DNA of 58,697 bases from Deltaproteobacteria bacterium (GCA_016875215.1 VGRX01000004.1:1-58697), one strand, 5' to 3'. Positions 8,663-56,692 are shown, counted from the stretch's first letter. Numbers and translations are program-made. Notes: a model not told the origin generated them from the sequence alone.

Positions 8663-8830
8663 CGGATTGCCTCCGTGGCGAGGCGAAGCAGCGGCCCGAG
8701 TCGGATTGACTGAACCTCGGTAGCGGCCGGGGGACGTCTCCAACGGCCTCCCTTCGGTCCGGAGTTGGTTCCGGCCTCTCCGAACTGATCCATTCGAATG
8801 GCCTGGAATGCCGGTCCGAGCGGATTCCTC

Positions 8831-8859
8831 TTGACTTCCCGGACCGCAATCCCCATAAT
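8831..8859 (+). promoter_or_regulatory. Near-consensus sigma70-like promoter upstream of the sulfur-assimilation operon
   Basis: TTGACT (8831..8836), exactly 17 nt, then CATAAT (8854..8859), inside a locally AT-richer patch about 150 nt upstream of the cysteine synthase ATG. Confidence 0.45.
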
Positions 8860-8947
8860 GTCTACTGTATTTGTAGTGTTTTGCGCCGGCGGGGTCGGGT
8901 GGCGAACGGCCGGCAGATGCCCTGGGAATGGCCGTAGGAGGAATACC

Positions 8948-9004
8948 ATGACGAAGCTCGTGGCGGCCGCAACTGCGGTCGTTCTCACCGGGATGCGAGG
9001 TTGA
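8948..9004 (+). CDS. Candidate 18-codon upstream/leader ORF (MTKLVAAATAVVLTGMRG)
   Basis: AGGAGGA lies 5 nt upstream of ATG 8948. The stop TGA at 9002..9004 is 2 nt before the cysteine synthase ATG 9007. There is no homology evidence. Confidence 0.3.
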   Translation: MTKLVAAATAVVLTGMRG

Positions 9005-9006
9005 CC

Positions 9007-9987
9007 ATGCCCAATCGCCCCCTCAATCATGATCGGTCGCTCCGTCGCTACGATGACATCCGCCAGCTCATCGGTTCCCCGGAATCGCCGACTCCGCTCG
9101 TGAGGCTCAACCGGGTCGCCCGGGGGAACGCGGGGGTGTTCGTCAAGCTCGAGTGGTTCAATCCCTTCGGCTCGATCAAGGACAGGACCGCTCTCTATCT
9201 CCTCCGCGGGCTTGCGGAACGGGGCCTCCTGGACGGACGGGAGCTCGTGGAGCCCTCGTCGGGCAACACCGGGATCGCGCTGGCCGCGCTGGCCGCGCTG
9301 GCCGGCATCCGTCTCACGGTGACGATCCCGGACGGCGTCCCGGAGGAGAAGAAGGTCCTGCTGCGCATGCTTGGGGCCACCGTGATCGAAACGCCGGATG
9401 ACCTGTGCCCCATCGACCATCCCAAGGACGGGGCCATCGCATTGGCGCACTCCATTGCCGAAAGCCCGGCGAATGCCGGTCTGTACGTCATGCCCAACCA
9501 GTATGCCAATCCGGACAACGTGCGCGCACATTTCGAGACCACCGGGCCCGAGATCTGGAACCAGACCGAGGGGCAGGTACGGACGTTCGTGGCAGGATAC
9601 GGGACGTGCGGCACCATCACGGGCGTCGCCCGCTACCTCAAGGAACGGAATCCCGAAGTCCGGGTGGTGGCCGTGGAGCCGCAGCGCGGTCACCGCCTGC
9701 CCGGTCTGAAGAATCTCCAGGAGTCCAGGCAGCCGGAGATCCTCGATCGGTCTCTCATCGACGAGGTCGTGCGCGTCGACGACGGCCCAGCCTACGAAAT
9801 GACGGCCCGCCTATACAGGGAGGAGGGTCTCGTCGTCGGTCCGTCGACCGGGGCAATCGTGCATGCGGCGGTCTCGAAGTCCGCCATGGAGGAGGGGGTC
9901 GTCGTCGCGATCTCTCCCGACGGTGGCCAGAAGTATGGCAGCTTCTTCACGACCTGGCTCCGGCAGCAGCATCCGGGGTCGGGCTGA
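9007..9987 (+). CDS. PLP-dependent cysteine synthase family protein (CysM/CysK-like, second paralogue)
   Basis: TPLVRLNR, KLEWFNPFGSIKDRTA (PLP lysine motif), EPSSGNTGIALA and GTCGTITG. ATG 9007 has GAGG 6 nt upstream; the track starts at TTG 9001. Confidence 0.85.
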   Translation: MPNRPLNHDRSLRRYDDIRQLIGSPESPTPLVRLNRVARGNAGVFVKLEWFNPFGSIKDRTALYLLRGLAERGLLDGRELVEPSSGNTGIALAALAALAGIRLTVTIPDGVPEEKKVLLRMLGATVIETPDDLCPIDHPKDGAIALAHSIAESPANAGLYVMPNQYANPDNVRAHFETTGPEIWNQTEGQVRTFVAGYGTCGTITGVARYLKERNPEVRVVAVEPQRGHRLPGLKNLQESRQPEILDRSLIDEVVRVDDGPAYEMTARLYREEGLVVGPSTGAIVHAAVSKSAMEEGVVVAISPDGGQKYGSFFTTWLRQQHPGSG

Positions 9988-20969: not shown

Positions 20970-21177
20970 GGCACTCCTCCTACGCCCCGCCCCTTCCACT
21001 TGGCCACAGGTCAGGGATGGGCGCAAGGAAAAAGGACGGGACCTGGGTAACCGTTCAGTCTCGGTTTGACCGAAAACGCCCATGGCCCCTCTGGTCCGAG
21101 CCCCGACGGTGAGGGGCCGCAACAGGCCTGCTCGTCAACCCAGCAGTGATCGGTTGCCCAGCGGCGCCACAAATCAG

Positions 21178-26522: not shown

Positions 26523-26720
26523 CAGGTGCGGAGCGAAGCTCGCCGACCGACTCGCCTCGACCGAACCGCAGGTGCGGTGCGAAGCTCGCTGACCGACTCG
26601 CCTCGACCGAACCGCAGGTGCGGTGCGAAGCTCGCTGACCGACTCGCCTCGACCGAGCCGCAGGTGCGGTGCGAAGCTCGCTGACCGACTCGCCTCGACC
26701 GAACCGCAGGTGCGGTGCGT
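26523..26720. repeat. 46-bp direct tandem repeat, 4 full units + partial fifth, non-coding
   Basis: The unit is caggtgcggtgcgaagctcgctgaccgactcgcctcgaccgaaccg. Unit starts at 26523, 26569, 26615, 26661 and 26707 give a period of 46, not divisible by 3. There are a few single-base variants. It sits between convergent gene ends (fadL stop 26485, sigma stop 26738). Confidence 0.9.
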
Positions 26721-33214: not shown

Positions 33215-33445
33215 CACGGCACATCTGCACGGCCCCTCCCGCGTGGTCGGGGCTGGGATCACGGCACATCCGCAGGGCCCCTTCCGCGTGGTCGGGGCTG
33301 GGATCACGGCACATCCGCAGGGCCCCTTCCGCGTGGTCGGGGCTGGGATCACGGCACATCTGCACGGCCCCTCCCGCGTGGTCGGGGCTGGGATCACGGC
33401 ACATCTGCACGGCCCCTCCCGCGTGGTCGGGGCTGGGATCACGGC
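33215..33445. repeat. 45-bp direct tandem repeat x5 (+partial), two sequence variants in order A-B-B-A-A
   Basis: Units start at 33215, 33260, 33305, 33350 and 33395. Variant A is cacggcacatctgcacggcccctcccgcgtggtcggggctgggat. Variant B is cacggcacatccgcagggccccttccgcgtggtcggggctgggat. The array lies between the PHP gene stop and the pepF start. Confidence 0.9.
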
Positions 33446-38739: not shown

Positions 38740-40011
38740 TCATCGAGCCGACGGGGCCTCGGTCAGCAGGTTGCGCACCACGACGGTGGTCAGCACGACG
38801 ACCAGCGCGAGTCCCACGACCAGGGAGGCCAGGAAGAGGAAGAACATGGTCCACTGCGGATGAACGGGCACCCTGCCCGTGGAAAAGACCGGCTCGAGCC
38901 AGGCGATCCGCAGAAGGTCCCTGAGAATGACGATTGTCGCCAGCCCGCCCGCAGTCGTGAGCGTCGCCAGAACGGGAAGGAGGAACGAACGGGTCCGGGT
39001 GGCCGCAAACACCAGGACCGTCGCGACCAGGAACAGGGCCACACCTGCGGCTCCCACGGGGACCAGCAGCGGCGCCTCCCGAAGCCGGCCCAGCACCTCC
39101 TCGGGAATCCGCGTGACGAACCAGGCACCGGACAGAACGGTCGCAGCGAGGGACACCAGGAAGGCCTTGAGCCCGAGCGCCTGGAACGTCCTCCCCCGAC
39201 CCGGTCCGGACGGACCGCCATCCCCCTCGGATGCCCGCACACGACGTTGCGGCTCCGGCCCGCCTTCTCCCTGGTCGTCCGGGCCGCCTTCTCCCTGGTT
39301 GTCCGGCCCGCCTTCTCCCGGGTCGTCCGGGCCGAATCGGCCCCGGCCCCGCAGGAACGCTCCGGCCAGCAGCAGGCCGAGCCCGGCCACGGCGAGGGCC
39401 GGCGACAGGAAGGTGAACAGGCGGGGAACCACGGTCGGGTTCCGCATGTTGAGCGACTGCCCGTCGGGCCGCATCGCGTAGGTCAGCATCCACTGGTCCG
39501 GCTCCTGCATCAGCGTGAAGTTGTTCACGTAGAAGAACCCGATGCTCAGCATGGCCAGCAGGGCCACCAGCAGCCAGATCCACTGAGGTCGCGGGGACCG
39601 AACCCGCGTCAGCTTGTGCAGGTAGAGCAGCCCGTAGGCAACGATCAGCAGCGGGACCACCAGGATCCAGTGCGCTCCGATGATCACGGACGAGCTGTAG
39701 AAGAGCTGGCCGTAGATCACCTGCACGAACAGGAGGGGCGGGATGCCCAGCGTCACCAGGTACGAGAACCCCAGCGTCAGCCCGCCGCCGAGGTACCGGG
39801 ACAGGCTCTCCGCACAGGTGGGCCGCCGGACCCGGACCCAGAGCCACAGGATCATCCCGCCCAGCGTGAAGTGCAGCGCCAGGAAGTGCAGCGTCAGGGT
39901 CAGGTAGGCCAGGGCCCGCAGCAGCTCGACCGGAATCGGGTAGCCCAGCGGATCGGCCGGAGGCAAGGGCAGCGCATCCCACAGTCCGGTGGCCAGGAGG
40001 AGATGGTTCAT
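38740..40011 (-). CDS. Polytopic membrane protein of unknown family, last gene of the Rieske/cyt b/CydA-like operon
   Basis: 423 aa with about 10 hydrophobic segments and a central loop holding GPDDPGEGG/GPDNQGEGG/GPDDQGEGG repeats. The start ATG overlaps the upstream stop by 4 nt. Confidence 0.6.
   Translation of the reverse strand: MNHLLLATGLWDALPLPPADPLGYPIPVELLRALAYLTLTLHFLALHFTLGGMILWLWVRVRRPTCAESLSRYLGGGLTLGFSYLVTLGIPPLLFVQVIYGQLFYSSSVIIGAHWILVVPLLIVAYGLLYLHKLTRVRSPRPQWIWLLVALLAMLSIGFFYVNNFTLMQEPDQWMLTYAMRPDGQSLNMRNPTVVPRLFTFLSPALAVAGLGLLLAGAFLRGRGRFGPDDPGEGGPDNQGEGGPDDQGEGGPEPQRRVRASEGDGGPSGPGRGRTFQALGLKAFLVSLAATVLSGAWFVTRIPEEVLGRLREAPLLVPVGAAGVALFLVATVLVFAATRTRSFLLPVLATLTTAGGLATIVILRDLLRIAWLEPVFSTGRVPVHPQWTMFFLFLASLVVGLALVVVLTTVVVRNLLTEAPSAR
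39255..39335. repeat. 24-bp in-frame tandem repeat x3 (+partial) inside the membrane-protein gene
   Basis: Units start at 39255, 39279 and 39303 (ccggcccgccttctccctggtcgt and variants), encoding PD(D/N)(P/Q)GEGG on the minus strand. Confidence 0.85.
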
Positions 40012-41399
40012 GGCATCACTTCCCGGGTTTCCCCTCCGTCACTGCGCCGGCGACCATCCGCCTGCGCTTCGGCCAGGATCTCGGCCGCGCCCACGTTCTT
40101 CCCGTGCAACGACTGGATGTAGGACGAGATCGCGGCCCGGTCCTCCGCTGTGCCGACGAACGGCGGGGGCACCCCCTGCTGGTCCATGGTCTCGAGCCAC
40201 TTGAAACCGGAAAGCGGGGTCCAGGACTCGGTCCGGGGAATGATCCCGCGGTAGCCGCTGCGGGTATGGCAGCTTGCGCACTGGAGCCGGAACGCCCACT
40301 CGCCATGCTGCGGCGTCAGCGGGACAACGTCCGGATCCCAGCGGGTCAGCGACAGGTAGGGCTGCTGCCGGTATCCGGCTTCCGCTGCCTTGTGCTTCCA
40401 GAGCGAGTTCGAGTACAGCGTGTCGTAGATGACATAGGGCTTGCGGGCCAGCTCCCGGGCAAACTCCCCGCCCAGGAAGCCGATCTGAGCGACCACGAAC
40501 AATGCCATGGCCCCGGCAACCCCCAGCGCCCTCGGCCGCACCTGGTAAAGCAGCGATCCGAGCACGAGAAGGGTCCCTGCCACGCCGGCAGCGACCGCAA
40601 ACAGCGTCATGACCTCGAGCCGGCCCCCGCCCAGCCCCGTCGCCCCCGCTGCCATCAGCCTTGCCGTGTTGGATGGCAGCGTCTTCCAGTACCAGTAGGA
40701 CAGCCCGGGCAGAAGCAGCGCCGCGGGCAGCACCCATCGACTGCAGAAGACCACGATCCGCTCCTTGAGCCCCCCCTCTTCCTCCAGCCGGGCAGCCACC
40801 AGCAACCCCCCGAGACCTGCAACCAGGAACATGACCAGCGTCCGGATCAGCAGCGACGGGAGATACCCCGGGTTGAAGAAGCCGGCCGCCATGTCCCGGT
40901 TCTCGATCGTCCACCCGCCCGGAGTCAGCATGAACGTCAGGATCCCGTTGATGACGAACAGCGACCCCCACGCGATGACGAAGTAGAGCCCGGCCAGCGC
41001 CACCTGGAGCCTGCGGCTGTTCTTCCGCCACCCGTAGTAGTACAGGTACAGCAGCGTCAGCTCGACTAGAAACAGAACCCACTCGATCGCCCAGGCGAAC
41101 ACGAACTGGTGGATGAGCAGGCTCGTACCCTCCGGGCTGGCAAGCTGGATCGAGAACCAGATCCCCACGCCCGTCATGGCTCCGAATACCGTCGTGTAGA
41201 CCAGGAAGAAGGTCGCGTACTTGTGCAGCCACTCCCGGATCCGCTCGCCGTCAGGCTGGCGATCCGACCAGAGCTCGGCCACGAACAGAAGAGCCCCGCC
41301 CCCAATGGCGAAATGCGAGATCAGCACGTGGATGATGGCGATGATGGCCACCACCATCCCGGCCCCCAGAAACGGGACGTCCCAGACCGGGTAGTTCAT
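40008..41399 (-). CDS. Cytochrome bd oxidase subunit I (CydA)-like membrane protein fused to a C-terminal mono-haem cytochrome c domain
   Basis: ATG 41399 (GGAGG 4 nt upstream). CydA-like segments: AIIAIIHVLISHFAIGGG, FAWAIEWVLFLVELTLLYLYYYGW, AWGSLFVINGILTFMLTPGG. The C-terminal soluble part carries LQCASCHTRSGY (CxxCH). Confidence 0.7.
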   Translation of the reverse strand: MNYPVWDVPFLGAGMVVAIIAIIHVLISHFAIGGGALLFVAELWSDRQPDGERIREWLHKYATFFLVYTTVFGAMTGVGIWFSIQLASPEGTSLLIHQFVFAWAIEWVLFLVELTLLYLYYYGWRKNSRRLQVALAGLYFVIAWGSLFVINGILTFMLTPGGWTIENRDMAAGFFNPGYLPSLLIRTLVMFLVAGLGGLLVAARLEEEGGLKERIVVFCSRWVLPAALLLPGLSYWYWKTLPSNTARLMAAGATGLGGGRLEVMTLFAVAAGVAGTLLVLGSLLYQVRPRALGVAGAMALFVVAQIGFLGGEFARELARKPYVIYDTLYSNSLWKHKAAEAGYRQQPYLSLTRWDPDVVPLTPQHGEWAFRLQCASCHTRSGYRGIIPRTESWTPLSGFKWLETMDQQGVPPPFVGTAEDRAAISSYIQSLHGKNVGAAEILAEAQADGRRRSDGGETREVMP

Positions 41400-41454
41400 G
41401 GCTCCTCCCATGGGGTCGGCGCGGCACGGAACACCGGAGTCATGGTCGTCCTCC

Positions 41455-42729
41455 TCAACTCACCATACCCCAGACCGTCATGGCCACGAGGTACACCAGG
41501 AATGCGACCCCGACCCGAGTCGCCACCCGCCCCCGACGGTCCGCCGGCACGCTGCGATCCACGAACGGCACGACCAGGAACAGGACCGGAATCAGCCCGG
41601 TCAGCGCCATCCCCAGGAGCTCGAGGCTGCCCGGGAACAGCTTCAGCATCTGGAACGGGACCATGAAGTACCATTCCGGCTTGATCCCCTCCGGCGCGGC
41701 TGCCGCCGGGTCGGCCTCGGGAGCCAGCACCCTCGGAAACAGTGCGCTCAACGCCACCAGCAGCGCGGCCAGTGCCATCCAGATCGGAATCTCGTTGACC
41801 AGGTACTCTGAGAAGAAACGGTGGTACCTCTTCTGCTCGGGAGGGAGCGCACGGAAGGAATCGGGCTCGCTCACCCCCTGCACCTGGACGAAGAACAGGT
41901 GGACCGAGAGAACGGCCAGGAGCAGCAGCGGCAGCACCACCACGTGCAGCGGATAGAACCTGCCGATGGTATCCACCGTCACGTCCGGACCGCCCCTTGC
42001 CAGTCCGGCGATCCAGGTGCCAAGCAGCGGCATCTTCTCCAACTCGCTGATGCCCACGCGGGTGGCGAAGAAGGAGAGGTCGTCCCACGGCAGCAGGTAG
42101 CCGGAAAACCCGAGGAACATCGTGGTCCCCAGCAGTGCCAGTCCGGTCAGCCAGGTGAGCTCCCGTGGCGGCCGGTACGCCTTCATGAAGAACGTGCTGA
42201 ACAGGTGCACGAACAGCGCCAGCAGCATCAGGTTCGCGCTCCAGTGGTGGATGCTGCGGAGGAGACCGCCAAACGGGATCTCCATGACGATCCTCTGCAC
42301 CGAGGACCAGGGCTGGCTCGGGCTGTAGTAGACCATCAGGAGCACGCCGGTGACGATCTGCACAACCAGGAAGAACAGCGCCATCGAGCCGATGGTGTAC
42401 CAGAAGCTGTGCCGGTGTCTGGGGACCTTCTTTTTCGAGAGGAACTCCACCAGCGGCCAGACGGGTAAACGACGAAAGAAGGCCCGGCCGAGCTTTCCGG
42501 TCACGGTATCCGCAGGGGGAAGAGCCTCTTCGGCCTCGGGTGGAATCGTCACGAAGCGGGAGTCCGAGAAGCGCTCTTCCGCCTCGGGAGGAATCGGCAC
42601 GAAGCGGGGGTCCGAGGAGCGCTCTTCGGCCTCGGGAGGAATCGGCACGAAGCGGGGGTCCGGGGAACGCTCTTCCCGGCCCGCAGCAACGGGAATGCCG
42701 GGATCACGACGGGTATCGTCCACGGTCAT
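41455..42729 (-). CDS. Cytochrome b (fused b6 + subunit IV-like) of a Rieske/cyt b complex, with repeat-containing N-terminal extension
   Basis: LRSIHHWSANLMLLALFVHLF, GFSGYLLPWDDLSFFAT, FYPLHVVVLPLLLLAVLSVHLFF and GIKPEWYFMVPFQMLK. ATG 42729 overlaps the Rieske stop (ATGA). Confidence 0.85.
   Translation of the reverse strand: MTVDDTRRDPGIPVAAGREERSPDPRFVPIPPEAEERSSDPRFVPIPPEAEERFSDSRFVTIPPEAEEALPPADTVTGKLGRAFFRRLPVWPLVEFLSKKKVPRHRHSFWYTIGSMALFFLVVQIVTGVLLMVYYSPSQPWSSVQRIVMEIPFGGLLRSIHHWSANLMLLALFVHLFSTFFMKAYRPPRELTWLTGLALLGTTMFLGFSGYLLPWDDLSFFATRVGISELEKMPLLGTWIAGLARGGPDVTVDTIGRFYPLHVVVLPLLLLAVLSVHLFFVQVQGVSEPDSFRALPPEQKRYHRFFSEYLVNEIPIWMALAALLVALSALFPRVLAPEADPAAAAPEGIKPEWYFMVPFQMLKLFPGSLELLGMALTGLIPVLFLVVPFVDRSVPADRRGRVATRVGVAFLVYLVAMTVWGMVS
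42526..42675. repeat. 48-bp in-frame tandem repeat x3 in the 5' end of the cytochrome b gene
   Basis: It encodes EERSPDPRFVPIPPEA / EERSSDPRFVPIPPEA / EERFSDSRFVTIPPEA. The period of 48 nt was measured between successive cctcggg motifs at 42534, 42582 and 42630. Confidence 0.85.
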
Positions 42730-43256
42730 CCCTCCTGCTTCCGGTCGGTCGGGGCCACATAGAGCACGCCGTTCTCCTCGAACACACGAAGGGGTGTCAG
42801 CGGCCTGGGAGGCGGTCCGGCGACGTTCTTCCCGCCGAAGTCGTACATGCCGCCGTGGCAGTGGCAGAAGATCCTGTCTCCCGCGAAGTTGACGTTGCAG
42901 CCGGCGTGCGTGCACTTCGAATCGAACGCCCGGAGCTCCCCCTCGGGAGTCCGCAGCACGATGCATCCCCGCTGTCCGTACGAGCCGTTCGCTCCGGACC
43001 CCGGAGCGGCCACGTCGGCCGGCGAGACCTTCTTCACCAGGGCTCGCCCTTCCTCCCCGAACGGGTCGGGTGCGGGTCTGGGCGCCAGGTACCGATAGAT
43101 GGGGTACGCGGCCAGCCCCAGCCACGCCAGCCCGAGCCCGCCGGTCACCCAGAGGAACCGCCGGCGACCCCGGTCGACCCCCTGCCTGCCGCCAACTTCG
43201 TTCTGTGCAACCCCGCTGCTGCGCCGGACCTCCCCGGCCTTGTCCGCATCCGTCAT
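42726..43256 (-). CDS. Rieske [2Fe-2S] iron-sulfur subunit with Tat signal
   Basis: ATG 43256 (GGAGGGGGGAG upstream). Tat motif GRRRFLWVTGG, cluster boxes CTHAGCNV and CHCHGGMYD. Confidence 0.85.
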   Translation of the reverse strand: MTDADKAGEVRRSSGVAQNEVGGRQGVDRGRRRFLWVTGGLGLAWLGLAAYPIYRYLAPRPAPDPFGEEGRALVKKVSPADVAAPGSGANGSYGQRGCIVLRTPEGELRAFDSKCTHAGCNVNFAGDRIFCHCHGGMYDFGGKNVAGPPPRPLTPLRVFEENGVLYVAPTDRKQEG

Positions 43257-43426
43257 TGGCTCCCCCCTCCGGAGGACTTCTCTCTCTCCCCCTCCGGAAA
43301 GCCCTCTCACGCTGCCGAATGTAGACACGCCGGAATGATCTGCCAAGAGGGAAACGATTGACGCGCACGCGGACGTCGACTAGAGTGATTTGGCCTTCTG
43401 GAGAATCGCGAGAGACGGAGGTGCGC

Positions 43427-45562
43427 ATGAAAGGGCTGAGACGATTCGTGACGATCTGGCATGTGGCGCTCGTGCTTCTGGCATGCAGCGTGGTGGCGAT
43501 GGCGCAGTACGAGCCGGCAGAGGACCAGTGGCAGGGCGGAGACGCACAGGCCAACTGGGGGGAGAACCAGTACGGCCAGAAGTGGGGCGGGAACTACGGA
43601 GGAGACTCCTGGCAGGAGCTCGAGAAGCAGCGCAAGGAGATCCTCAGGCGGCTCCCCGACGAGCCCGACCTGCTCATCAACCTCACCGACGAGCTGATGC
43701 CTGCAACCCCGGACCTCACGGCGCTCGGGCGCAAGGGGACTCGGGCCCTGGTGAGAGGCCTGCTCGACAACGCGTCCGACGGCATCCGGCAGACGTGCGC
43801 ATCGGTGCTGGCCCAGGTACGCGACCCCGAGGCCGCCTCCGCACTGATCGATGCCCTGGCCGACCGCAACGAGATGGTCCGCATGCAGGCGCTCATCGGT
43901 CTGGGCAACCTGGCGGAACCCGGATTCGGACCCCACTTCGTCAAGCGCATCGAGGACCCCGAGGAGACCTACGTCGTCAAGAACGCTGCCGTCACCGCCA
44001 TCGGCGACGTGGGCTATTCCAAGGCGATGCCGCTGCTGATGAAGCTGGTCAAGGCCGATGATCAGACCTATGCCTGGACCGCGCTGGCAGCGATGTGGGA
44101 CATGCGCAACAAGGCCGGCCGCGGCGACCTCGTCGACGCCTTCCTCTATGTGCTCAAGAAGGAGACCGGCAGCGGCAGCCAGGTCGTCGAATACCTCGGC
44201 GAGCTCAAGGCCGAGGAAGCTTCCGACCTGCTGGCGAAGTTCTTCGTCGGCCGCGACGTCCACACCAAGAACCGGGTCATCCTGGCCCTGGGCAAGATCG
44301 GCAGCTCCGGTGCCCGCAAGATGCTCAAGGACGTCATGAAAACGACCCAGACCGCCCGGCACCTGAACAACGCTGCCATTGCGCTGGCCAAGCTGGGCGA
44401 CCGCAAGGAGGTCATCGGGATCCTCGTCGGCCTGCTCCAGGACCGCAAGGCCTACATGCGGATCAACGCAGCCTTTGCCCTGGGCGAGATCGAGGCGTCC
44501 GAACCCGCAGCGGTCGAGGGCCTCGTCACGGCCCTGTCCGACCCCAACGACTTCGTCCGCTCCGAGGCCGCCGTAGCCCTCGGCCGGATCAAGGCCGCGT
44601 CGGCAGCGCCCAGGCTCGAGGAGCTGGCCAACGGAACCAACCCGTTCGTCGCGCTCGACGCGGTCATCGCACTCAACCGGATCGACTTCGGCAAGTACCG
44701 CCAGCTCATCTTCGACAAGCTGCTCGTGCACAAGGAACCCAAGTTCGCACGGATCGTGTCCCGCGGAATCCGGTTCCTCGCCGAGCAGAAGGACCCGGCA
44801 GCCCTCCCGTACCTGCTGGCCTTCCTGAGGCAGCCCTCGGGAAACTACGGCGACACGCTGCAGCTCCTGGCCCCCTACGCGGCGGACCAGCTTTCCGACT
44901 TCCAGACCAGCATCCAGTACCTGGTCCACACCTGCTCCTACGACTGCTTCGGCACGCTGATGCGCAACCTGCGCGACTGGAAGCTCGGCGCCGTCGCACC
45001 CGCACTTCTCGAGCGCCTGTACCGGATGTACTACCTCTACGACAAGGAGACCGCCTACTTCACCATCGGCAAGGTGGGCAGCAAGGAGCTGACGGCCCGC
45101 ATTGCGGGGATCCAGGAGACCTCCAACGCACTCAAGCTCTACCAGCAGTTCGCATTGGCGAACCTGGGCGACGAGGCCGCGCTCCAGAAGCTCGTGGACG
45201 TCGTCCGTGACGGCAATCTCGAGGACAAGCGGGATGCCGCATTCCTCCTCGGCTCCATCGATGTCGAGGCGGTCGTGCCCAAGCTGGCCGAGCTGATGGA
45301 GAAGGGCGACGCGTTCACCTCGCTGACCGCCACCGCCGCTCTCGTCGGTCTGGCCCACGCACCGGCCTTCGACCGCCTGTACAAGGTGATGAAGGACGGT
45401 ACTCCCTCCCTGGCTGCCGAGGCGACTCGCGTGTTCATGATCTCGCCCAGCAAGAAGGTCGACGAGTATCTCGCCAAGGCGGCAGGCAGGGAATCCGACC
45501 TCGTGACCAAGCGCCGCTGCGAGGAGATCCTCTACCAGCGCCAGCCGAAGGAATTCCGCTAG
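43427..45562 (+). CDS. Secreted HEAT-repeat (PBS-lyase HEAT-like) protein
   Basis: Signal peptide MKGLRRFVTIWHVALVLLACSVVAMA. Repeated ...ALIDALADRNEMVRMQALIGLGNL..., ...LVTALSDPNDFVRSEAAVALGRIK... and ...DVVRDGNLEDKRDAAFLLGSI... GGAGGTG lies upstream. Confidence 0.7.
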   Translation: MKGLRRFVTIWHVALVLLACSVVAMAQYEPAEDQWQGGDAQANWGENQYGQKWGGNYGGDSWQELEKQRKEILRRLPDEPDLLINLTDELMPATPDLTALGRKGTRALVRGLLDNASDGIRQTCASVLAQVRDPEAASALIDALADRNEMVRMQALIGLGNLAEPGFGPHFVKRIEDPEETYVVKNAAVTAIGDVGYSKAMPLLMKLVKADDQTYAWTALAAMWDMRNKAGRGDLVDAFLYVLKKETGSGSQVVEYLGELKAEEASDLLAKFFVGRDVHTKNRVILALGKIGSSGARKMLKDVMKTTQTARHLNNAAIALAKLGDRKEVIGILVGLLQDRKAYMRINAAFALGEIEASEPAAVEGLVTALSDPNDFVRSEAAVALGRIKAASAAPRLEELANGTNPFVALDAVIALNRIDFGKYRQLIFDKLLVHKEPKFARIVSRGIRFLAEQKDPAALPYLLAFLRQPSGNYGDTLQLLAPYAADQLSDFQTSIQYLVHTCSYDCFGTLMRNLRDWKLGAVAPALLERLYRMYYLYDKETAYFTIGKVGSKELTARIAGIQETSNALKLYQQFALANLGDEAALQKLVDVVRDGNLEDKRDAAFLLGSIDVEAVVPKLAELMEKGDAFTSLTATAALVGLAHAPAFDRLYKVMKDGTPSLAAEATRVFMISPSKKVDEYLAKAAGRESDLVTKRRCEEILYQRQPKEFR

Positions 45563-45701
45563 CGGGGCGGCGGGGAACGCCCGGGGCGGCGGGGAAGGCC
45601 CGGGGCGGCGGGGAAGGCCCGGGGCGGCGGGGAACGCCCGGGGCGGCGGGGAGGGCAATAGGACGAATAGGACGAATAGGACAAATAGGACGAATAGGAC
45701 C
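45563..45701. repeat. Compound intergenic tandem array: 19-bp G-rich unit x5 followed by 9-bp AATAGGACG x5
   Basis: The cggggcggcggggaaSgcc units start at 45563, 45582, 45601, 45620 and 45639. From 45657 comes aataggacg aataggacg aataggaca aataggacg aataggacc. The array begins 1 nt after the HEAT gene stop. Confidence 0.9.
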
Positions 45702-45725
45702 CGCCGCCTTGGGTGAGAAGCCTCC

Positions 45726-47921
45726 ATGGCAAAGGATCTGCCGGAACGCCCGGGCCGACGAGAAGACCGGGGTGATGAGAAGCCTGGGGCGACGAGAAGC
45801 CCGGAGCGACGAGAAGACCGGGGTGATGAGAAGCCTGGGCCGACGAGAAGACCGGGCCGACGAGAAGACCGGGGTGATGAGAAGCCTGGGTCGGCGGGGC
45901 CGACGTCCGATGTTTCCTCGTCCCTCCTCCTCTTCCTGATCCCTGCGGTGGCGGTGGCCGCGTTCCCGTTCTTCTCCTCGTTTGCGCCGGCCAAGGCGCT
46001 CGTGGCAGGGGGGGGGCTTGCCGGGGCGCTGGTGTGGAGGAAGAGGCGCGGGCCAACCGCCTTTGCTCGAAGCTTCGGCCCGACCTTCTCGACCCTTGTG
46101 CTGGCCTTGCTCTACCTGGTCGTATCGCTGCCGTCGCTCCTGTTCCCGCACGCGAGGGGAGCGGCCCTGCACGCTGCGCACCTCGACCTGGTCGGGGTGG
46201 CGGTGTTCCTGGTGGCCCGCGGTGCGGCCCTCCAGGAGCGGTTTGTCGAGCGGCTGGCAGGGTGGGGGAGCATCGCCATTCTGCTGGTGGCGGTCCCCGC
46301 CGCTATCGAGTTGATTCTCGGGCGGCCCGTGCTCGGCTACTCGCTGCTTCCGGGCGGAACCACGCTCGGCAACCCCGACTTCGCGGCCGAGCTCGTTGCG
46401 GTGCTCCTGCCCGCTGCCGCTCTGGGGCTGGCCGACTTCCGGCGCTCCGGCCCGGATCGTCCGCCGCCCTCTTCGCCTCGCTGGACGGCGTGGATGAGCC
46501 TGGCCGCGGTTGCCGCCGCCCTCCTCCTCCTCGCACTGATCCCCTCGGTGACCGCGCGGCTGGCCGTGGGAGCCACGCTGCTCCTGGCCCTCCTCTGGCT
46601 TGCGAAGCCCCTCGTGGGAGGGTGCTCCGCGACCGACCCCACGCCGGATCGGCCTCGGAAGTCTCGCGTGGGAGGGTGCTCCGCGACCGACCCCACGCCA
46701 GATCGGCCTCGGAAGTCTCGCGTGGGAGGGGGTGCCGCGCCCGCCCCCCTTGTCTTCGCAATCCTCCTCGCTGCAGTGGCCGCAGCGGTCGTCCTCCTCT
46801 GGGGCGAGGGCCGGTTGCATCTCTACCGGACCGCGCTCGACTGCGCGCTGGAGCACCCCTGGACCGGCCACGGTGCCGGGGGGTTCTCGGGCTGCTTCCT
46901 GGAGCAACAGGCGGAGCGGGTGGCTGCGGACCCTGCGCTCCTTCCTTTCTGGACGAATGCGCGCCATGCGCACGACGAGTGGCTTCAGCTCTGGGTCGAA
47001 CGGGGGATCCTGCCCCCCCTCGTGCTGGTGCTGCTCTTCGGGGTCGCTTTTCTGCGAAGTCTGCTCGGACGCGGACGGCAGCTCTGGGTCGCAGCGGGCA
47101 TCCTGGCCGCGGGCCTCTGTGCATCGGGCTCGGTGACGCTGGCGCACTACCCTGGCCGGATCGTGACGTTCCTCTGGCTCGGCCTGGCCTGTGCTCCCAT
47201 CCTGCAACGGAAGGAAGGAAGCGATGAACGGCCCGACATGCCGGACCCCTCGACTTCGCTCCTTTCGAAGGGGCCTGTCCTCGACTCTGAGGGCCGAACC
47301 CCTCAGGCCCGGACTCGAAGAGAACAGCCCTTCTCGGGGCCTGTAAAAGGCGGGGAAGGCGTGGCGGACATGTCGCTCGCAGCGTGGCCGGTCGCGTTCT
47401 TCCTCGTGCTGGCTCCGCTCTGGTCCGCGGGCATCGATGCCCTCTACGTCCGAGGCGAATACCGGCTGGTGCTGCAGCTCGAAGGCTCGCATGCCGGTGC
47501 TTTGCTGCACCAGGGGCAGGTTCTGGCGGATTCCGGGAATATGGAGGAGGGTTGCGGACTTGTAGAGCAGGCCCTGGAGGCCTCCCCCGACATCGGCACC
47601 GCGGTCATCGCCGGCGTGTGTCGGGCGAGGAACGGTGAGCTGGAGGAGGGCGTCCGACACTTGGAGACCGCAACGCGCTGGCATCCCAGATTCGGCACCG
47701 CGTACGCGAATCTCGCCGAGGTGTACCGTCTCGCAGGCCGCCAGGAGGAGGCGTGGCGACACATCACCCGCGCCCTCAGCCTGTGGCCGGGACGCAAGGA
47801 TTTCCAGCGAATCCGCAAGGCCGTCTGCAGGAACAATCCGTTTTGTTTGCCTGCCCCGCCCGCGCCGCGGTATGATTCGGTCCGCCCGACCGGGTCTGAC
47901 AGGACGAATCTACCGAGGTAG
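45726..47921 (+). CDS. O-antigen ligase (Wzy_C)-like polytopic membrane protein with C-terminal TPR repeats and repeat-containing N-terminus
   Basis: NARHAHDEWLQLWVERGI matches the O-antigen ligase-family signature (HxHNxxLqxxxExGi), with multiple TM segments. C-terminal TPR-like ...GTAYANLAEVYRLAGRQEEAWRHITRALSLWP. The only canonical in-frame start before TM1 is ATG 45726, which has no good SD, so the start is uncertain. Confidence 0.65.
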   Translation: MAKDLPERPGRREDRGDEKPGATRSPERREDRGDEKPGPTRRPGRREDRGDEKPGSAGPTSDVSSSLLLFLIPAVAVAAFPFFSSFAPAKALVAGGGLAGALVWRKRRGPTAFARSFGPTFSTLVLALLYLVVSLPSLLFPHARGAALHAAHLDLVGVAVFLVARGAALQERFVERLAGWGSIAILLVAVPAAIELILGRPVLGYSLLPGGTTLGNPDFAAELVAVLLPAAALGLADFRRSGPDRPPPSSPRWTAWMSLAAVAAALLLLALIPSVTARLAVGATLLLALLWLAKPLVGGCSATDPTPDRPRKSRVGGCSATDPTPDRPRKSRVGGGAAPAPLVFAILLAAVAAAVVLLWGEGRLHLYRTALDCALEHPWTGHGAGGFSGCFLEQQAERVAADPALLPFWTNARHAHDEWLQLWVERGILPPLVLVLLFGVAFLRSLLGRGRQLWVAAGILAAGLCASGSVTLAHYPGRIVTFLWLGLACAPILQRKEGSDERPDMPDPSTSLLSKGPVLDSEGRTPQARTRREQPFSGPVKGGEGVADMSLAAWPVAFFLVLAPLWSAGIDALYVRGEYRLVLQLEGSHAGALLHQGQVLADSGNMEEGCGLVEQALEASPDIGTAVIAGVCRARNGELEEGVRHLETATRWHPRFGTAYANLAEVYRLAGRQEEAWRHITRALSLWPGRKDFQRIRKAVCRNNPFCLPAPPAPRYDSVRPTGSDRTNLPR
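45756..45891. repeat. Composite 51-bp (34+17) in-frame tandem repeat, about 2.7 copies
   Basis: cgacgagaag motifs start at 45756, 45790, 45807, 45841 and 45858. On the plus strand it encodes RREDRGDEKPG(x6) three times. Confidence 0.85.
46614..46735. repeat. 54-bp in-frame tandem duplication (2 copies + partial)
   Basis: gtgggagggtgctccgcgaccgaccccacgcc... begins at 46614, 46668 and 46722. It encodes VGGCSATDPTPDRPRKSR twice within a loop of the O-antigen-ligase-like protein. Confidence 0.85.
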
Positions 47922-49603: not shown

Positions 49604-51558
49604 TGCCGCCCCTGCAACGCCTCCTGGCCATCCTGCCGATCCTGCTGACCGCGCCATGTGGCTGCGGGTCCCGGGAGGTGGCGGAGCCCGTGATCACGCG
49701 AGAGCCGCTGAATCTCTCAGCGGAGCGACCGGCCGACGGGAGCTCCACGGCAGCGGTCCCGCCCAGGTTCCTCAGCAGCGAGGAGCTGACGCTGAAGCTC
49801 TCGGCCCCGGTGCGTGTGGAGCTCCCCCGGCCGGTCGAGGACGCTCCGGCCGAGCCCGTGGTGGTCGAGGAGGTCGAGCCGAACGACGAGGCCGCGTCCG
49901 CTACGCAGGCCTTCGTGCCCGGCAGCGTGAAGGGACAGGTGAGCCCGAAGGAGAAGAAAGGGGCGTTGGACCACGACTGGTACCGCCTCGACGTGGACCT
50001 GGAGCATCCGCGGGTGATGCAGCTCGACCTGTCGCCGGCCGGCGAGCTGGATCTCACGCTGGAGCTGTACCGTGAGGGGCTCAAGGGGCGCGAGCTCCTG
50101 GTCTCGCTCGACAACGGAGGCAAGGGGCGCGGTGAGAAGCTCCCCAACTTCCGCCTGGCCAACGGGCAGTACCTGGTGCACGTGTTCCCTGTGGGAAAGA
50201 AGGTATCCGTCGAGAAGGCCAGCCCATACACGCTCACGCTGGTCTTGGAAGATGCCAGGGCCGGGGTCGAGACAGAGCCCAACGACGACCACCTCAAAGC
50301 CGAGATGCTGGCCCTGCCCGGTACCGTCACGGGCCTGATGCAGAGGACCGAGGACCAGGACTGGTTCCAGGTGGATCTCCTGAAACTGACGCCCGGGACG
50401 AGCCGGCTGGCGCTCGAGCTGCTGCCGCCCGTGGGGGCCGGGCTCGTGCTCACGGTCTTCACGCAGACCCGTGAGGAGCTGCTGTCGGTGGCAACGGGGA
50501 AAGGAAAGAAGATCGTGGTCCCGAACGTGGCGATCCTCGACGGCTCCCCTTCCTACTACCTCCGTGTGTCGGCACCGGAAAAGAGCAAGCCGATTGCCGG
50601 GGAGTACACGCTCAAGGCCGTGGTGGAACCGCTGAAGGAGAGGACCGAGGTCGAGCCCGACGGCACCCCGGAACAGGCGATGCGGCTGTTCCTGGAAGAA
50701 GCACTGTCGGGGTGGCTGCCCTACGAGGGGGACGAGGACTGGTTCCGGATCGAGCCGCCCGACCTGGGGCTGCTGGGCCAGGCAGCGTCCCACGACGATG
50801 CCGACGGATCTCCGGACGGGGATGCGGGGGGGACCGGCGGGCCGACGCCCGCAACGGGGGGGACTGGCGGGCCGACGCCCGGAACGGGGGGGACCGGCGG
50901 GCCGACGCCCGGAACGGGGGGGACCGAGTTCGCTGCCGGTGCCTCCGGGGCTGCTCCGCCCCAAGAGGAGGAGAGGCCGGCGTTCAGGCTCCAGGTCAGC
51001 GGCGTGCCGGGCATCAACTCCGTGATCGAGCTGTTCGAGGAGGACGGCCAGGCGCCGCTCGGCCGCTACGACGCGGGCGGCAAGGGGGAGGGAGAGCTGA
51101 TCCCCAACCTGGCGCTGCCTGTCCACCCGATCCTCGTGAAGCTCTCCGCCAGCGGCCATAACGGCTCGGTCACCTACATCCTCCAGTCGTCGCTCGTGCC
51201 GACGAAGGGGATGGAGGTGGAGCCCAACAACCGCCCCGAAGAGGCCACGCCGCTGCGCGGGCCGTCGAGGCAGATGAAGGGCTACCTGGCGCTTGTCGGT
51301 GACGTGGACTGCATCCGTCTCGAGGCTCCGGTGCCGAGGCTCACCGTGACGCCGCCCCGGGACGTGGATGTCACCGTGAGCTTCTACGACGCTACCGACC
51401 GCCTCCTCGACCAGTCCACCAGCCTGGCAGGGGAACCGGTTCACCCGCGCAAGGCCGGCCTCGGGGCCACCCTCGTCTGCCTGAAGCTCGCGGGGACCGC
51501 AGAGCGCGGGGCCGCCGAACCCTGGATCTTCGTGATCGACCCGGAGGCCGCTCCCTGA
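49603..51558 (+). CDS. Lipoprotein with four pre-peptidase-C-terminal (PPC)-like beta modules
   Basis: Lipobox-like LLTAPCGC. Four modules each open with an E(P/x)ND-type motif and contain DxDW(Y/F)R: VEPNDEAASA..DHDWYRLDV; TEPNDDHLKA..DQDWFQVDL; VEPDGTPEQA..DEDWFRIEP; VEPNNRPEEA..DVDCIRLE. Confidence 0.6.
   Translation: MPPLQRLLAILPILLTAPCGCGSREVAEPVITREPLNLSAERPADGSSTAAVPPRFLSSEELTLKLSAPVRVELPRPVEDAPAEPVVVEEVEPNDEAASATQAFVPGSVKGQVSPKEKKGALDHDWYRLDVDLEHPRVMQLDLSPAGELDLTLELYREGLKGRELLVSLDNGGKGRGEKLPNFRLANGQYLVHVFPVGKKVSVEKASPYTLTLVLEDARAGVETEPNDDHLKAEMLALPGTVTGLMQRTEDQDWFQVDLLKLTPGTSRLALELLPPVGAGLVLTVFTQTREELLSVATGKGKKIVVPNVAILDGSPSYYLRVSAPEKSKPIAGEYTLKAVVEPLKERTEVEPDGTPEQAMRLFLEEALSGWLPYEGDEDWFRIEPPDLGLLGQAASHDDADGSPDGDAGGTGGPTPATGGTGGPTPGTGGTGGPTPGTGGTEFAAGASGAAPPQEEERPAFRLQVSGVPGINSVIELFEEDGQAPLGRYDAGGKGEGELIPNLALPVHPILVKLSASGHNGSVTYILQSSLVPTKGMEVEPNNRPEEATPLRGPSRQMKGYLALVGDVDCIRLEAPVPRLTVTPPRDVDVTVSFYDATDRLLDQSTSLAGEPVHPRKAGLGATLVCLKLAGTAERGAAEPWIFVIDPEAAP
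50826..50930. repeat. 30-bp in-frame tandem repeat x3 (+partial)
   Basis: gggggggaccggcgggccgacgcccgSaac units start at 50826, 50856 and 50886, encoding GGTGGPTP(A/G)T. Confidence 0.85.
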
Positions 51559-54553: not shown

Positions 54554-56692
54554 CTACGCTTCCACCTTGAGCGTGTAGTCCGAGCAGGACCCGGAGGAGA
54601 CCGGATTGATCTGGATGTAGGCCGTGCCTGAGTCGTCGTCCCCCTGCCAGATCGACTGGCAGCCGCCTACCCCGATGGAGATGGAGTTGGCGCCGGAGAT
54701 GTTCTGGCAGGAGCTGTAGGAGTTGCCCCCCTTGTCGCACTTGTAGGTGACGCAGAGCTTGTAGGTCTGGCCCGCAGGTACCGTGAGGGTGACCTTCGGG
54801 TCGATGGAGTGCAGCGAGGTGTCGCTGATGTGGATCTTGAACCAGTCCTGGTCATACGCTGGGTTGATGCTGGCCGCGACGGTCTGTGTGTCACCGGCGG
54901 CGTCGGTGATGCCGGGCAGTGTGTAGGACTGTCCCTCGGAATCGTTCTCCTCGTAGCCGTCCATCTTCCCCAGCGCGCAGCTTGACCAGCCGCATGCGGC
55001 GGTGCAGGTCTGGGTCCCGCAGTTGTTGCAGGGCTGGGTGGTGCCGGGAGCGCAGACCCCCTCTCCCGCACAGCTCGTGTACGGCCCCCAGGTGCACTGG
55101 TCCAGGCAGAGGCGGGTCTTGGTTCCGCAGTTGCCGCAGGCTGCGGTTTCCTTCTGGTTGGGGGAGCAGACTCCTTCTCCGGTGCAGGCCCCCCAGGCGC
55201 TCCAGCCGCACTGGGCGGTGCAGGTGCGTTCCCGGGTCCCGCACTTTCCACATGCCTCGGTCTGCTTGTCACCCGGCGAGCAGACCCCCTCGTCCTGGCA
55301 GGGTCCCCAGATACCCCACGCGCACTGGTCGGTGCAGGTGTGCCCCTTCTTGCCGCACTTGCCGCAATCCGTGTACTCGGTCTCCGACGGCACGCAGATG
55401 CCCTGCCCCTCGCAGCTCCCCCACTGGCTCCAGAGACATTGGTCGGTGCAGGTGCGGGTCTGGTTCCCGCACTTGCCGCATGCCGTGGATTCCTGCGAGC
55501 CGGGGGAGCAGACCCCCTCGTTTGCACAGCCGCTCCAGTCGCTCCACTGGCACGAATCGGTGCAAAGCCTGAGGCTGCTCCCACAGTTGCCACACCCCTT
55601 GGTTTCCGAAGCTCCGGGCATGCAGACGCCCCCCTGCTGGCAGGCCCCCCACTCGCTCCACTCGCACTTGGCCGTGCAGGCACGCGTCTGGCTGCCGCAC
55701 ATGCCGCAGGGTGCGCTCTCCTGGGCTCCGGGCGAGCACGCCCCCTGGCCCAGGCATTCGCCCCACTCTCCCCACTGGCACTGGTCCGTACAGGTGCGCA
55801 CGCTCTCCCCGCAGTTGCCGCACGTCTTGGGCTCGGTCGTGCCCGGTGCACACGCGCCCGATGCCTGGCACGCGCCCCACTCGCTCCACCCGCACGAGGC
55901 GGTGCAGGTCCGAGTCTGGCTCCCGCAGTTGCCGCACGCCTGGTTCTCCAACTCGCCGGCCGTGCAGATCCCCTCCCCGCCGCACGAACCCCACTCGCCC
56001 CAGAGGCAGGCCCCGGTGCACGTGCGCAACTGCTTGCCGCACTTGCCGCAAGGTTGCTCCTCCGCCGTCCCTGCGGTGCAGTCCCCCTCTCCGAAGCAGT
56101 TGGACCACTCGCCCCACTGGCAGTTCTCCTTGCAGGTCCGGTCCCGCTTGCCGCACTTGCCGCAGGTCTCACTCTCCACCTCGCCCGCGTCGCACACCCC
56201 CGCCTTGGCACACGAGGTCTCCAGGTCGGGCAGACAGACGAACAGCGTATCCGGATCCGTGTAGGCCACCCCCTTGCAATCCCACCCGTCAGGACAGTCG
56301 TCGATGCAGACGTCCGTGCAGATGTACCCGATGTCGGAAGGCACGCAGAAGCCGCTCAGGCAGTCCTTGTTGCCCGTGCACGAATCGCCGAGCTCCCCGC
56401 CCCCGGGGAGCCCGGGGTCACCCGCTCTCCAGTCCCCCGGGAGGAGGTCCCCACGGCAACCTCCGTCCCCCGGGCAGCGCGCATCCGGCCACTCGGTCCC
56501 GTCCGGCACCACGGTACGGCCGTCCGGCAGCACGGTACGGCCGTCCGGCAGCACGGTCACGGCATCCGGAGCAATCCCCGGAGCATCACCGGTCGCGTCC
56601 ACCCCCGACGTGCCCGCAGGGGCCGAGCAGGCGGCAAGAAGGAGAATGGCCGGTATCGGAGAGAGAAATCGCCCCATGCACGACAGGTTCAT
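54554..56692 (-). CDS. Lipoprotein with about 10.5 tandem 38-aa Cys/Trp/Arg repeats (thrombospondin type-1-like) and a C-terminal PPC-like domain
   Basis: Lipobox ILLLAACS. Repeats follow the form C(x)PGxxExxxCGxCGxxxRxCTxxCxW(S/G)xWGxCxxxGxC with CGxCG at residues 178, 216, 254, 292, 330, 368, 406, 444, 482, 520 and 556. The C-terminal GYEENDSEGQSY...DQDWFKIHI is PPC-like. Confidence 0.75.
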   Translation of the reverse strand: MNLSCMGRFLSPIPAILLLAACSAPAGTSGVDATGDAPGIAPDAVTVLPDGRTVLPDGRTVVPDGTEWPDARCPGDGGCRGDLLPGDWRAGDPGLPGGGELGDSCTGNKDCLSGFCVPSDIGYICTDVCIDDCPDGWDCKGVAYTDPDTLFVCLPDLETSCAKAGVCDAGEVESETCGKCGKRDRTCKENCQWGEWSNCFGEGDCTAGTAEEQPCGKCGKQLRTCTGACLWGEWGSCGGEGICTAGELENQACGNCGSQTRTCTASCGWSEWGACQASGACAPGTTEPKTCGNCGESVRTCTDQCQWGEWGECLGQGACSPGAQESAPCGMCGSQTRACTAKCEWSEWGACQQGGVCMPGASETKGCGNCGSSLRLCTDSCQWSDWSGCANEGVCSPGSQESTACGKCGNQTRTCTDQCLWSQWGSCEGQGICVPSETEYTDCGKCGKKGHTCTDQCAWGIWGPCQDEGVCSPGDKQTEACGKCGTRERTCTAQCGWSAWGACTGEGVCSPNQKETAACGNCGTKTRLCLDQCTWGPYTSCAGEGVCAPGTTQPCNNCGTQTCTAACGWSSCALGKMDGYEENDSEGQSYTLPGITDAAGDTQTVAASINPAYDQDWFKIHISDTSLHSIDPKVTLTVPAGQTYKLCVTYKCDKGGNSYSSCQNISGANSISIGVGGCQSIWQGDDDSGTAYIQINPVSSGSCSDYTLKVEA
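54971..56197. repeat. 114-bp (38-codon) diverged tandem repeat array, 10 full units + 1 truncated, coding
   Basis: The period was derived from the protein-level spacing of CGxCG motifs (exactly 38 residues for ten consecutive units). Confidence 0.85.

Follow-up and report, generated by a model that had tools for sequence, protein, structure and literature searches.

Can a cytochrome bd-type core receive its electrons from a Rieske/cytochrome b module, through a c haem fused to its own large subunit, and not from quinol directly? The question is raised by four co-oriented genes on the minus strand (38740-43256) of a 58,697-nucleotide (nt) stretch of DNA from a Deltaproteobacteria bacterium (GCA_016875215.1 VGRX01000004.1:1-58697); the whole stretch is called the window below. 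The usual view of cytochrome bd oxidases is that they oxidise quinol and conserve only one charge per electron. According to the accessible part of a preprint by Murali, Gennis and Hemp (bioRxiv 10.1101/2021.01.16.426971), to which all statements on this source are limited here, the bd superfamily is split into qOR, OR-C and OR-N, and the prediction made in 2021 was that OR-C and OR-N enzymes have donors other than quinol. An initial annotation had read the four genes as a candidate novel respiratory module in which electrons run from Rieske/cytochrome b over the fused c haem to a bd-type site. With modest confidence, we read them as a composite, copper-free respiratory chain from quinol to an acceptor, with the same path through Rieske/cytochrome b, fused haem c and a bd-type di-haem site.

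All four open reading frames (ORFs) of the initial annotation were recovered, with the junctions it described and the peptides it quoted (IIHVLISHF, IEWVLFLVE, WGSLFVINGILTFMLTPGG, CTHAGC and CHCHG). In the direction of transcription, a Rieske [2Fe-2S] protein of 176 amino acids (aa; 42726-43256) is followed by a 424-aa cytochrome b, a fusion of b6-type and subunit-IV-type parts (41455-42729). Then come a 463-aa CydA homologue of OR-C1a type with eight transmembrane (TM) helices and a C-terminal, predicted periplasmic mono-haem c domain (40008-41399), and a 423-aa protein, the OR-C1b-type partner subunit without haem c (38740-40011). The first two genes share an ATGA overlap (42726-42729), a 55-nt gap separates the cytochrome b stop (41455) from the OR-C1a ATG, and the last two genes overlap by 4 nt (40008-40011). 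A ribosome-binding site, GGGAGGAG, precedes the OR-C1a ATG at 41399. All four reading frames are intact, with a high GC content at third codon positions (GC3). The four genes are best explained as one operon.

The third protein matches OR-C1a of the cytochrome bd superfamily (residue numbers below, unless another protein is named, are those of its 463 aa). Pfam Cyt_bd_oxida_I (PF01654) scores 40.8 bits on residues 20-199 (cut-off 26.2), and the AlphaFold2 model (mean predicted local distance difference test score, pLDDT, 79) has eight long TM helices followed by a small helical domain at residues 332-458. With this model, the top 10 PDB matches of Foldseek are all CydA chains (probability 1.0, TM-score 0.47-0.65), so that the claimed homology to bd subunit I held on both counts. 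Pfam detects the cytochrome c domain below threshold only (16 bits); nonetheless, the haem-attachment motif CASCH is present at residues 374-378 (40266-40280), and its Cys and His residues are unchanged in all 78 homologues. When PDB sequences were searched with a profile of the family, class-I cytochrome c domains alone came up (such as CcoP, c6 and QcrC), and CydA was not retrieved by HMMER there, either with the family profile or with the N-terminal 230 aa; homology to the solved bd oxidases therefore rested on Pfam and on the fold comparison. The third protein is also 36-39% identical to octahaem (eight-CXXCH) proteins of Desulfovibrio-type genomes, which are the archetypal OR-C1a in the tables of Murali, Gennis and Hemp (bioRxiv 10.1101/2021.01.16.426971).

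In order to score the cofactor sites, 78 OR-C1a sequences from one-per-species genome loci were aligned. Twelve residues named here are invariant in all of them: H24, E106, E113, Y120, R186, E312, R315, E316, R319, C374, C377 and H378. By hhalign to E. coli CydA, H24 corresponds to His19, E106 to Glu99 and E113 to Glu107. In E. coli CydA, Glu445 is a ligand of haem b595. The invariant motif E316-L-A-R319-K-P-Y (E-x-x-R-K-P-Y) aligns with E. coli E445-Y-G-R448-Q-P-W; the alignment is short and low-scoring, and on it E316 is the probable equivalent of Glu445 and R319 of Arg448. The spacing of the Glu99 and Glu107 equivalents falls short of that in E. coli by one residue, in line with the published description of OR-C (10.1101/2021.01.16.426971).

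The ligands of haem b558 are a different matter. From residue 165 to residue 330, His and Met stay at or below 50% conservation at every position among the 78 homologues, and TM5-TM8 thus hold no conserved His or Met, which indicates that the His186/Met393 ligation of haem b558 has been lost. The TM6-TM7 loop is about 21 residues long in the model; hence there is no Q-loop, the long quinol-binding segment whose absence the initial annotation had suspected. The comparison with the E. coli haem ligands that it had proposed thus gave a divided outcome: His19, Glu99 and Glu107 have equivalents, as do probably Glu445/Arg448, but His186 and Met393 do not. What emerges is a bd-type di-haem pocket in which the haem that faces the quinol has gone and a c haem has been acquired at that same periplasmic face.

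For the fourth protein the initial annotation had found no recognisable family, and indeed this 423-aa protein has no significant Pfam or NCBIfam match. Its family nevertheless aligns with the OR-C1a family in hhalign (probability 93%, E 3e-7, 210 columns), and with its AlphaFold2 model (pLDDT 86.6) the top 17 PDB matches of Foldseek are all CydA or CydB chains. By sequence profile no similarity to E. coli CydB or CydA was seen (hhalign probability against CydB, 0.1%), and the earlier remark that a recognisable CydB is missing held up; the origin of the protein came to light solely by comparing it with the OR-C1a family and by searching with its fold. In the hhalign alignment, H42 of the 423-aa protein falls on H24 of OR-C1a, and HWILVVPLLIVAY falls on AIEWVLFLVELTL of OR-C1a, with no Glu at the channel positions. 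H42 is conserved in 72 of 73 homologues, Q97, W115, R197, R364 and R368 are invariant, and the gene is adjacent to that of OR-C1a in 78 of 80 loci. By its profile the protein is a divergent CydA paralogue, the OR-C1b partner, with the bd fold in its predicted structure, and a further haem may be bound at His42.

The Rieske/cytochrome b pair is intact, judged by its motifs. The Rieske protein scores 41.8 bits in Pfam (cut-off 20.3) and carries both cluster-binding boxes, CTHAGC and CHCHG, whose ligands (C115, H117, C120, C131, C133 and H134) are at least 95% conserved in 36 operon homologues. Cytochrome b is matched by Cytochrome_B (PF00033; 149 bits) and Cytochrom_B_C (PF00032; 39 bits), and its nearest NCBIfam models are ExtP and b6, both scoring below their cut-offs. 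Its haem ligands H161, H175, H262 and H277 and the Qo motif PEWY (residues 351-354) are likewise at least 95% conserved, in 40 operon homologues. The N-terminus of the Rieske protein has a twin-arginine motif, RRRFL, within the signal RGRRRFLWV; together with the eight-helix topology of OR-C1a, this twin-arginine translocation (Tat) signal would put the iron-sulphur (FeS) domain and the c haem of OR-C1a on the same periplasmic side. Neither the operon nor the rest of the 58.7-kb window was found to encode a c1, f or dihaem-c subunit for the pair, and no conserved extra gene was seen among the longer ORFs of 42 loci.

How far the arrangement extends was asked in a scan of species-representative genomes, which gave more than 500 relatives; 80 loci were kept, and homologues of the window's proteins were located in them by tblastn. 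Rieske and cytochrome b genes adjoin OR-C1a/OR-C1b in 43 of the 80 loci, from about ten phyla and in two fixed orders. The order of the window, Rieske - cytochrome b - OR-C1a - OR-C1b, occurs in 19 loci and the order OR-C1b - Rieske - cytochrome b - OR-C1a in 16, and 8 more hold a partial linked cluster that is cut by contig ends. The OR-C1a/OR-C1b pair stands alone in 36 of the 80 loci. The linkage is conserved beyond chance, so the juxtaposition in the window is not coincidental; two of the refuting conditions named in the initial annotation are thus answered in its favour. OR-C1a relatives comprise 876 cluster representatives at 50% identity in an exhaustive search (E <= 1e-3; 195 at E <= 1e-30), and more than 2,400 clusters at 90% identity in a word-indexed search.

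By neighbour joining, the OR-C1a proteins with linked bc genes group in three clades. The clade of the window includes Myxococcota/Polyangia, Planctomycetota, Verrucomicrobiota, Gemmatimonadota and Zixibacteria; another is made up of Melainabacteria and Bacteroidota, and the last of Verrucomicrobiota, Fibrobacterota, Armatimonadota and Acidobacteriota. The phyla with linked loci are thus Myxococcota, Planctomycetota, Verrucomicrobiota, Gemmatimonadota, Zixibacteria, Bacteroidota, Melainabacteria, Fibrobacterota, Armatimonadota and Acidobacteriota. Pairwise identities of OR-C1a correlate with those of cytochrome b at r=0.93, compared with 0.89 for cytochrome b and Rieske, figures to which shared ancestry contributes and which are no independent proof of interaction. 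They indicate that the four genes diverged, and apparently moved between phyla, as one unit.

The number of c haems follows the linkage. All bc-linked OR-C1a that were scored have one CXXCH, except for one with two. In the unlinked OR-C1a, most of the A-P group have 2 CXXCH and most of the P-A group 5-8. One haem would suffice as a bridge where a bc module is present, and without the module a multihaem wire would collect periplasmic electrons. Together with the lack of another c-type acceptor, these counts (one c haem in linked homologues, 2-8 in unlinked ones) are the strongest indirect argument for the wiring proposed in the initial annotation, and the electron path itself is what we infer from them. 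A conserved fifth gene (c1-like or CydX-like) was also sought by clustering the ORFs of 70 aa or more in 42 loci against one another, and none was judged real; the other recurring clusters were judged to be shadow ORFs, from example coordinates that lie inside the four genes, not every cluster being checked. The statement of the initial annotation that no c1/f-type subunit is present is borne out in the window as well, where neither the operon nor any probable gene encodes a second CXXCH protein.

Some loci depart from the common pattern. In L051 (7010-10678), two OR-C1a-like genes in tandem, each with about 37% identity to the window protein, are followed by an OR-C1b gene, which suggests a further duplication within the family. 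In L067 (Candidatus Obscuribacter phosphatis), a 407-aa ORF without Pfam match (8454-9677) comes immediately after the cluster in the same orientation and could be an extra lineage-specific component. A 'complex III/IV fusion' involving cbb3 oxidase genes has reportedly been seen in Melainabacteria. A location of the Obscuribacter cluster beside cbb3 oxidase genes was considered and rejected, as the cluster stands alone, away from haem-copper oxidase genes.

From these proteins a path of electrons can be proposed. The Rieske/cytochrome b module, b6-type with a PEWY Qo site, would run a Q cycle in which quinol is oxidised. No Rieske cluster works without a first acceptor, a part played in known complexes by cytochrome c1, cytochrome f or a dihaem c. 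As no other CXXCH protein is encoded here, the fused haem of OR-C1a is the only candidate, and the cluster would hand its high-potential electron to this sole c haem, in the C-terminal periplasmic domain. The fused haem would thereby replace both cytochrome c1/f and the haem b558 of ordinary bd oxidases. The electron would then pass to a di-haem site of bd type, located in helices 1-4 and 8 of OR-C1a, which keeps equivalents of the His19 ligand, of the Glu99/Glu107 proton path and probably of the Glu445 ligand, and there the acceptor, most probably O2, would be reduced. OR-C1b would fill the structural role of CydB. More tentatively, the four proteins may be physically associated as an obligate bc-bd supercomplex; this possibility, which we hold to be not quite an even one, would make it the first bd-type terminal oxidase to be supplied by a Q cycle via a c haem fused to itself. 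Such a chain, free of copper and with a high affinity for O2, would serve some ten bacterial phyla in respiring under microaerobic conditions or in scavenging O2.

The nature of the acceptor can be approached from the retained residues and from the neighbouring genes. O2 is most likely, because it is the residues of the bd O2 site and proton path that OR-C1a retains and because the cluster adjoins oxygen-defence genes in related loci. On the long contigs among these, three rubrerythrin genes lie near the cluster in L084 (4693-6303), and rubredoxin and methionine sulfoxide reductase genes in L085 (3129-3290, 11686-12765). In L086 (1-4204, 8609-9811), the genes near the cluster are those of Fur, AhpC, superoxide reductase, rubrerythrin, ferritin and a flavodiiron protein, and single oxygen- or peroxide-defence genes are found near it in L007, L013, L017, L020 and L025. 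Such a neighbourhood recurs without being general, the window itself lacks it, and it would also fit a detoxifying role.

Several observations weigh against the respiratory chain proposed here. The alignment to E. coli CydA is weak: hhalign gives a probability of 1.8% against the single sequence, with a sensible alignment at TM1-TM4, HMMER domain scores are about 1 bit, and a forced global alignment is unreliable past TM4, which leaves any assignment of a His186 equivalent tentative; manual motif anchoring would place the invariant R186 near the position of E. coli H186. Contrary to the motif alignment, the table of Murali et al., in the accessible part of the preprint, marks no Glu445 equivalent for OR-C1a. 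Octahaem OR-C1a relatives occur in strict anaerobes, and O2 need therefore not be the only or the original substrate. In papers of 2024-2026, OR-C and OR-N enzymes are described as uncharacterised, with no OR-C member purified or assayed. Finally, the window's OR-C1a has Pro at codon 411 (40167-40169), unique among 78 homologues, of which 77 have Met in the motif GVMPPF, and two other subunits carry repeat insertions, so that this allele could be impaired or mis-assembled.

The conserved linkage might also reflect two separate, co-regulated enzymes, the Rieske/cytochrome b complex reducing a cytochrome c encoded elsewhere and OR-C1ab drawing on the periplasmic cytochrome pool, with no fixed supercomplex. 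The 36 of 80 loci in which OR-C1ab lacks adjacent bc genes show that the module can work alone with periplasmic donors, and many bc complexes do use diffusible carriers. We consider this unlikely, since neither the operon, the 58.7-kb window nor the conserved flanks offer the FeS cluster any acceptor but the fused haem, a single c haem goes with bc linkage and multiple haems with its absence, OR-C1a diverges with cytochrome b as tightly as Rieske does, and start and stop codons overlap in the window. If the assembly is as proposed, its terminal reaction could still be the detoxification of nitric oxide (NO), H2O2 or another small oxidant instead of respiratory O2 reduction. The abundance of the family in anaerobes (Desulfovibrio and Thermodesulfovibrio, for example), the reported action of canonical bd oxidases also on NO, H2O2 and peroxynitrite, and the fact that the neighbours are stress-defence genes and not core respiratory genes would all suit such a function. 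It is nevertheless improbable: the retained ligands and proton-channel glutamates are those used for O2 reduction in bd oxidases, the bc-linked clades are largely from aerobic or microaerobic phyla, and a Q-cycle front end would make most sense in an energy-conserving chain.

OR-C1a could, moreover, be an electron outlet whose c haem passes electrons of the quinol pool, received via Rieske/cytochrome b, to periplasmic acceptors. The same role has been proposed in the literature for a CydA homologue of cable bacteria, and the multihaem versions resemble electron wires; an outlet is still a quite improbable account, as it leaves unexplained why the equivalents of His19, Glu99, Glu107 and Glu445 are invariant in 78 sequences and why a bd-fold partner is obligatory where a simple c1-like anchor would suffice. 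The peculiarities of the window's copy suggest one more account, namely that the module is decaying or mis-assembled in this genome and the locus is non-functional or a sequencing artefact. The Met found elsewhere at position 411 probably serves the c haem as its sixth (axial) ligand. Where a relative has gtc atg ccc ccg ttc, the DNA of the window is gtg ccc ccg ccg ttc, P0001, a 99%-identical protein from another assembly, has Met at this position, and two neighbouring residues near position 294 differ as well (ALGV vs ALTF). An assembly slip in the C-rich run (gtg ccc ccg ccg) seems as likely as a real variant. The insertions comprise about 41 aa of low complexity (GPDDPGEGGPDNQGEGG...) in the TM5-TM6 loop of OR-C1b (39208-39342) and 49 aa at the N-terminus of cytochrome b, and both are absent from relatives of 85-87% identity. 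We regard decay or artefact as very improbable for the locus, however, given four intact frames with high GC3, inserts that are in frame and confined to a loop and an N-terminal tail, and the retention of all other invariant residues.

Both insertions contain tandem repeats, as detected by Tandem Repeats Finder. In cytochrome b, an in-frame 48-nt unit is present in 3.2 copies (42522-42675), and the N-terminal extension repeats ERSxDPRFVPIPPEAEE three times; the cytochrome b beside the 87%-identical OR-C1a homologue has 375 aa, compared with 424 aa in the window. A 24-nt repeat (39254-39334) lies inside the OR-C1b insert, which is absent from all 29 aligned homologues (most of about 350-405 aa) and has a pLDDT of about 50 in the model; in the predicted topology the loop is cytoplasmic. 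Minisatellite-like repeats also occur elsewhere in the window, at 26523-26719, 33215-33445, 45563-45890, 46613-46748, 50825-50926 and 56499-56563. The periods of the window's repeats are often divisible by three (21, 24, 30, 45, 48, 51 and 54 nt), their consensus units show no mutual resemblance by eye, and some probably lie within coding sequence too.

As for the surroundings of the operon, a sigma-70-like promoter match is found upstream of the Rieske gene (43318-43346, minus strand; TTGGCA, 17-nt spacer, TACATT), a consensus match only, at 9 of 12 positions, and a HEAT-repeat gene (43358-45562, plus strand) is divergent from the Rieske gene. An origin of the locus as a mobile element or by recent transfer was rejected, on the grounds that the window is uniform in GC content (0.63-0.72 per 2-kb segment) and that the relative with the 87%-identical OR-C1a has its cluster flanked by the same HEAT-repeat, Wzy/TPR and GGDEF neighbours. 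The sigma-70 gene of the window has named homologues of only about 55% identity, mostly in Myxococcota or 'Deltaproteobacteria' metagenome-assembled genomes (MAGs), and the DNA stems from an uncultured lineage with a probable relationship to Myxococcota. The operon holds the only respiratory genes of the window. Other genes include an 800-aa ORF (10015-12417, plus strand) in which nitrite/sulfite reductase ferredoxin-like and 4Fe-4S domains are joined to a C-terminal TusA sulfur-transfer domain, apparently an unusual fusion, a 740-aa protein with three MopE-type putative metal-binding motifs (18900-21122, minus strand) and an 834-aa DUF3160 protein (2199-4703, minus strand).

For questions about electron donors in the bd superfamily, the operon is a clean test case: it is minimal (four genes, one c haem) and widespread, and its gene content itself specifies the donor, a Rieske/cytochrome b module without any other c-type partner. 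If the proposed chain is correct, a bd-type core would be coupled to a Q cycle, in parallel to the bc1-aa3 and bcc-aa3 chains, and by textbook stoichiometries the charge conserved per electron would be about double that of ordinary bd quinol oxidases. Microaerobes would then have a copper-independent O2 route with a higher energy yield, and the Glu445-like motif and the His of the partner subunit would become targets for mutagenesis. Its occurrence in Melainabacteria, non-photosynthetic relatives of cyanobacteria, would bear on how aerobic respiration was acquired around the cyanobacterial lineage.

Compared with known systems, the window's third and fourth proteins are closest to OR-C1a/OR-C1b. 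In the published description (10.1101/2021.01.16.426971), OR-C has no quinol site; OR-C1a has eight TM helices and a C-terminal haem c and is adjacent to an eight-helix paralogue, OR-C1b; the 'a' subunits keep Glu99 and Glu107 and the 'b' subunits do not; and the OR-C table lists His19, Glu99 and Glu107 as conserved. The window's protein shares the eight-helix CydA homology, the missing quinol site, the periplasmic CXXCH domain and the equivalents of these three residues, and its adjacent paralogous 'b' subunit likewise lacks the channel glutamates. Two points differ. In the accessible part of the description no Rieske/cytochrome b genes are mentioned for OR-C, whereas here they are contiguous with it (43 of 80 loci) and the number of c haems is down to one; and the Glu445 equivalent is marked absent for OR-C1a, whereas a conserved Glu445/Arg448-like motif is seen here. 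The word 'novel' in the initial annotation was therefore too strong for the module as a whole: the OR-C1a/OR-C1b pair belongs to a catalogued, uncharacterised family, and an association of bd-type genes with a bc module had been reported for OR-N1 and OR-N5 (10.1101/2021.01.16.426971). What was not found described is the combination with Rieske/cytochrome b: a full-text literature search of incomplete coverage, beyond which an earlier mention is possible, returned no published description of an operon that joins Rieske/cytochrome b to a mono-haem OR-C.

OR-N1 and OR-N5a/b (Nitrospirota, Chloroflexota and Rubrobacter; petA/petB/petD) are similar in lacking the quinol site and in adjoining Rieske/cytochrome b genes, and their quinol entry, too, is predicted to run via a bc-type module (10.1101/2021.01.16.426971). 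However, the CydA of OR-N has 10-14 TM helices and no defining fused haem c, while the window protein has eight and a fused c haem and groups with OR-C. Membership in OR-N5, considered for the sake of the pet genes, was rejected on helix number and the fused haem, the window protein being set apart from OR-N by the published description. Canonical CydAB(X) (qOR1-3; E. coli 6RKO, Geobacillus 5DOQ) has both large-subunit folds in common with the window (Foldseek probability 1.0, TM-score 0.5-0.66), as well as equivalents of the di-haem O2-site ligands and the proton-channel glutamates. Unlike it, the window has no Q-loop, no His186/Met393 for b558, no recognisable CydB and no CydX, and electrons would enter via haem c.

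Cable bacteria have a CydA homologue of the same architecture, ending in a cytochrome domain and likened here by description only, and these organisms also encode PetA and PetB; no partner subunit is reported for it, and the role proposed is that of an electron outlet. The nearest functional analogue is the actinobacterial bcc-aa3 supercomplex (QcrCAB-CtaCDEF), in which a bc-type complex that uses no diffusible cytochrome c is hard-wired via a bound c haem to a terminal oxidase, and in PDB the c domain of the window weakly matches QcrC. In bcc-aa3, the oxidase is of haem-copper type and the c haems sit on the bc side; in the complex proposed for the window, it is the copper-free bd-type part that carries the c haem.

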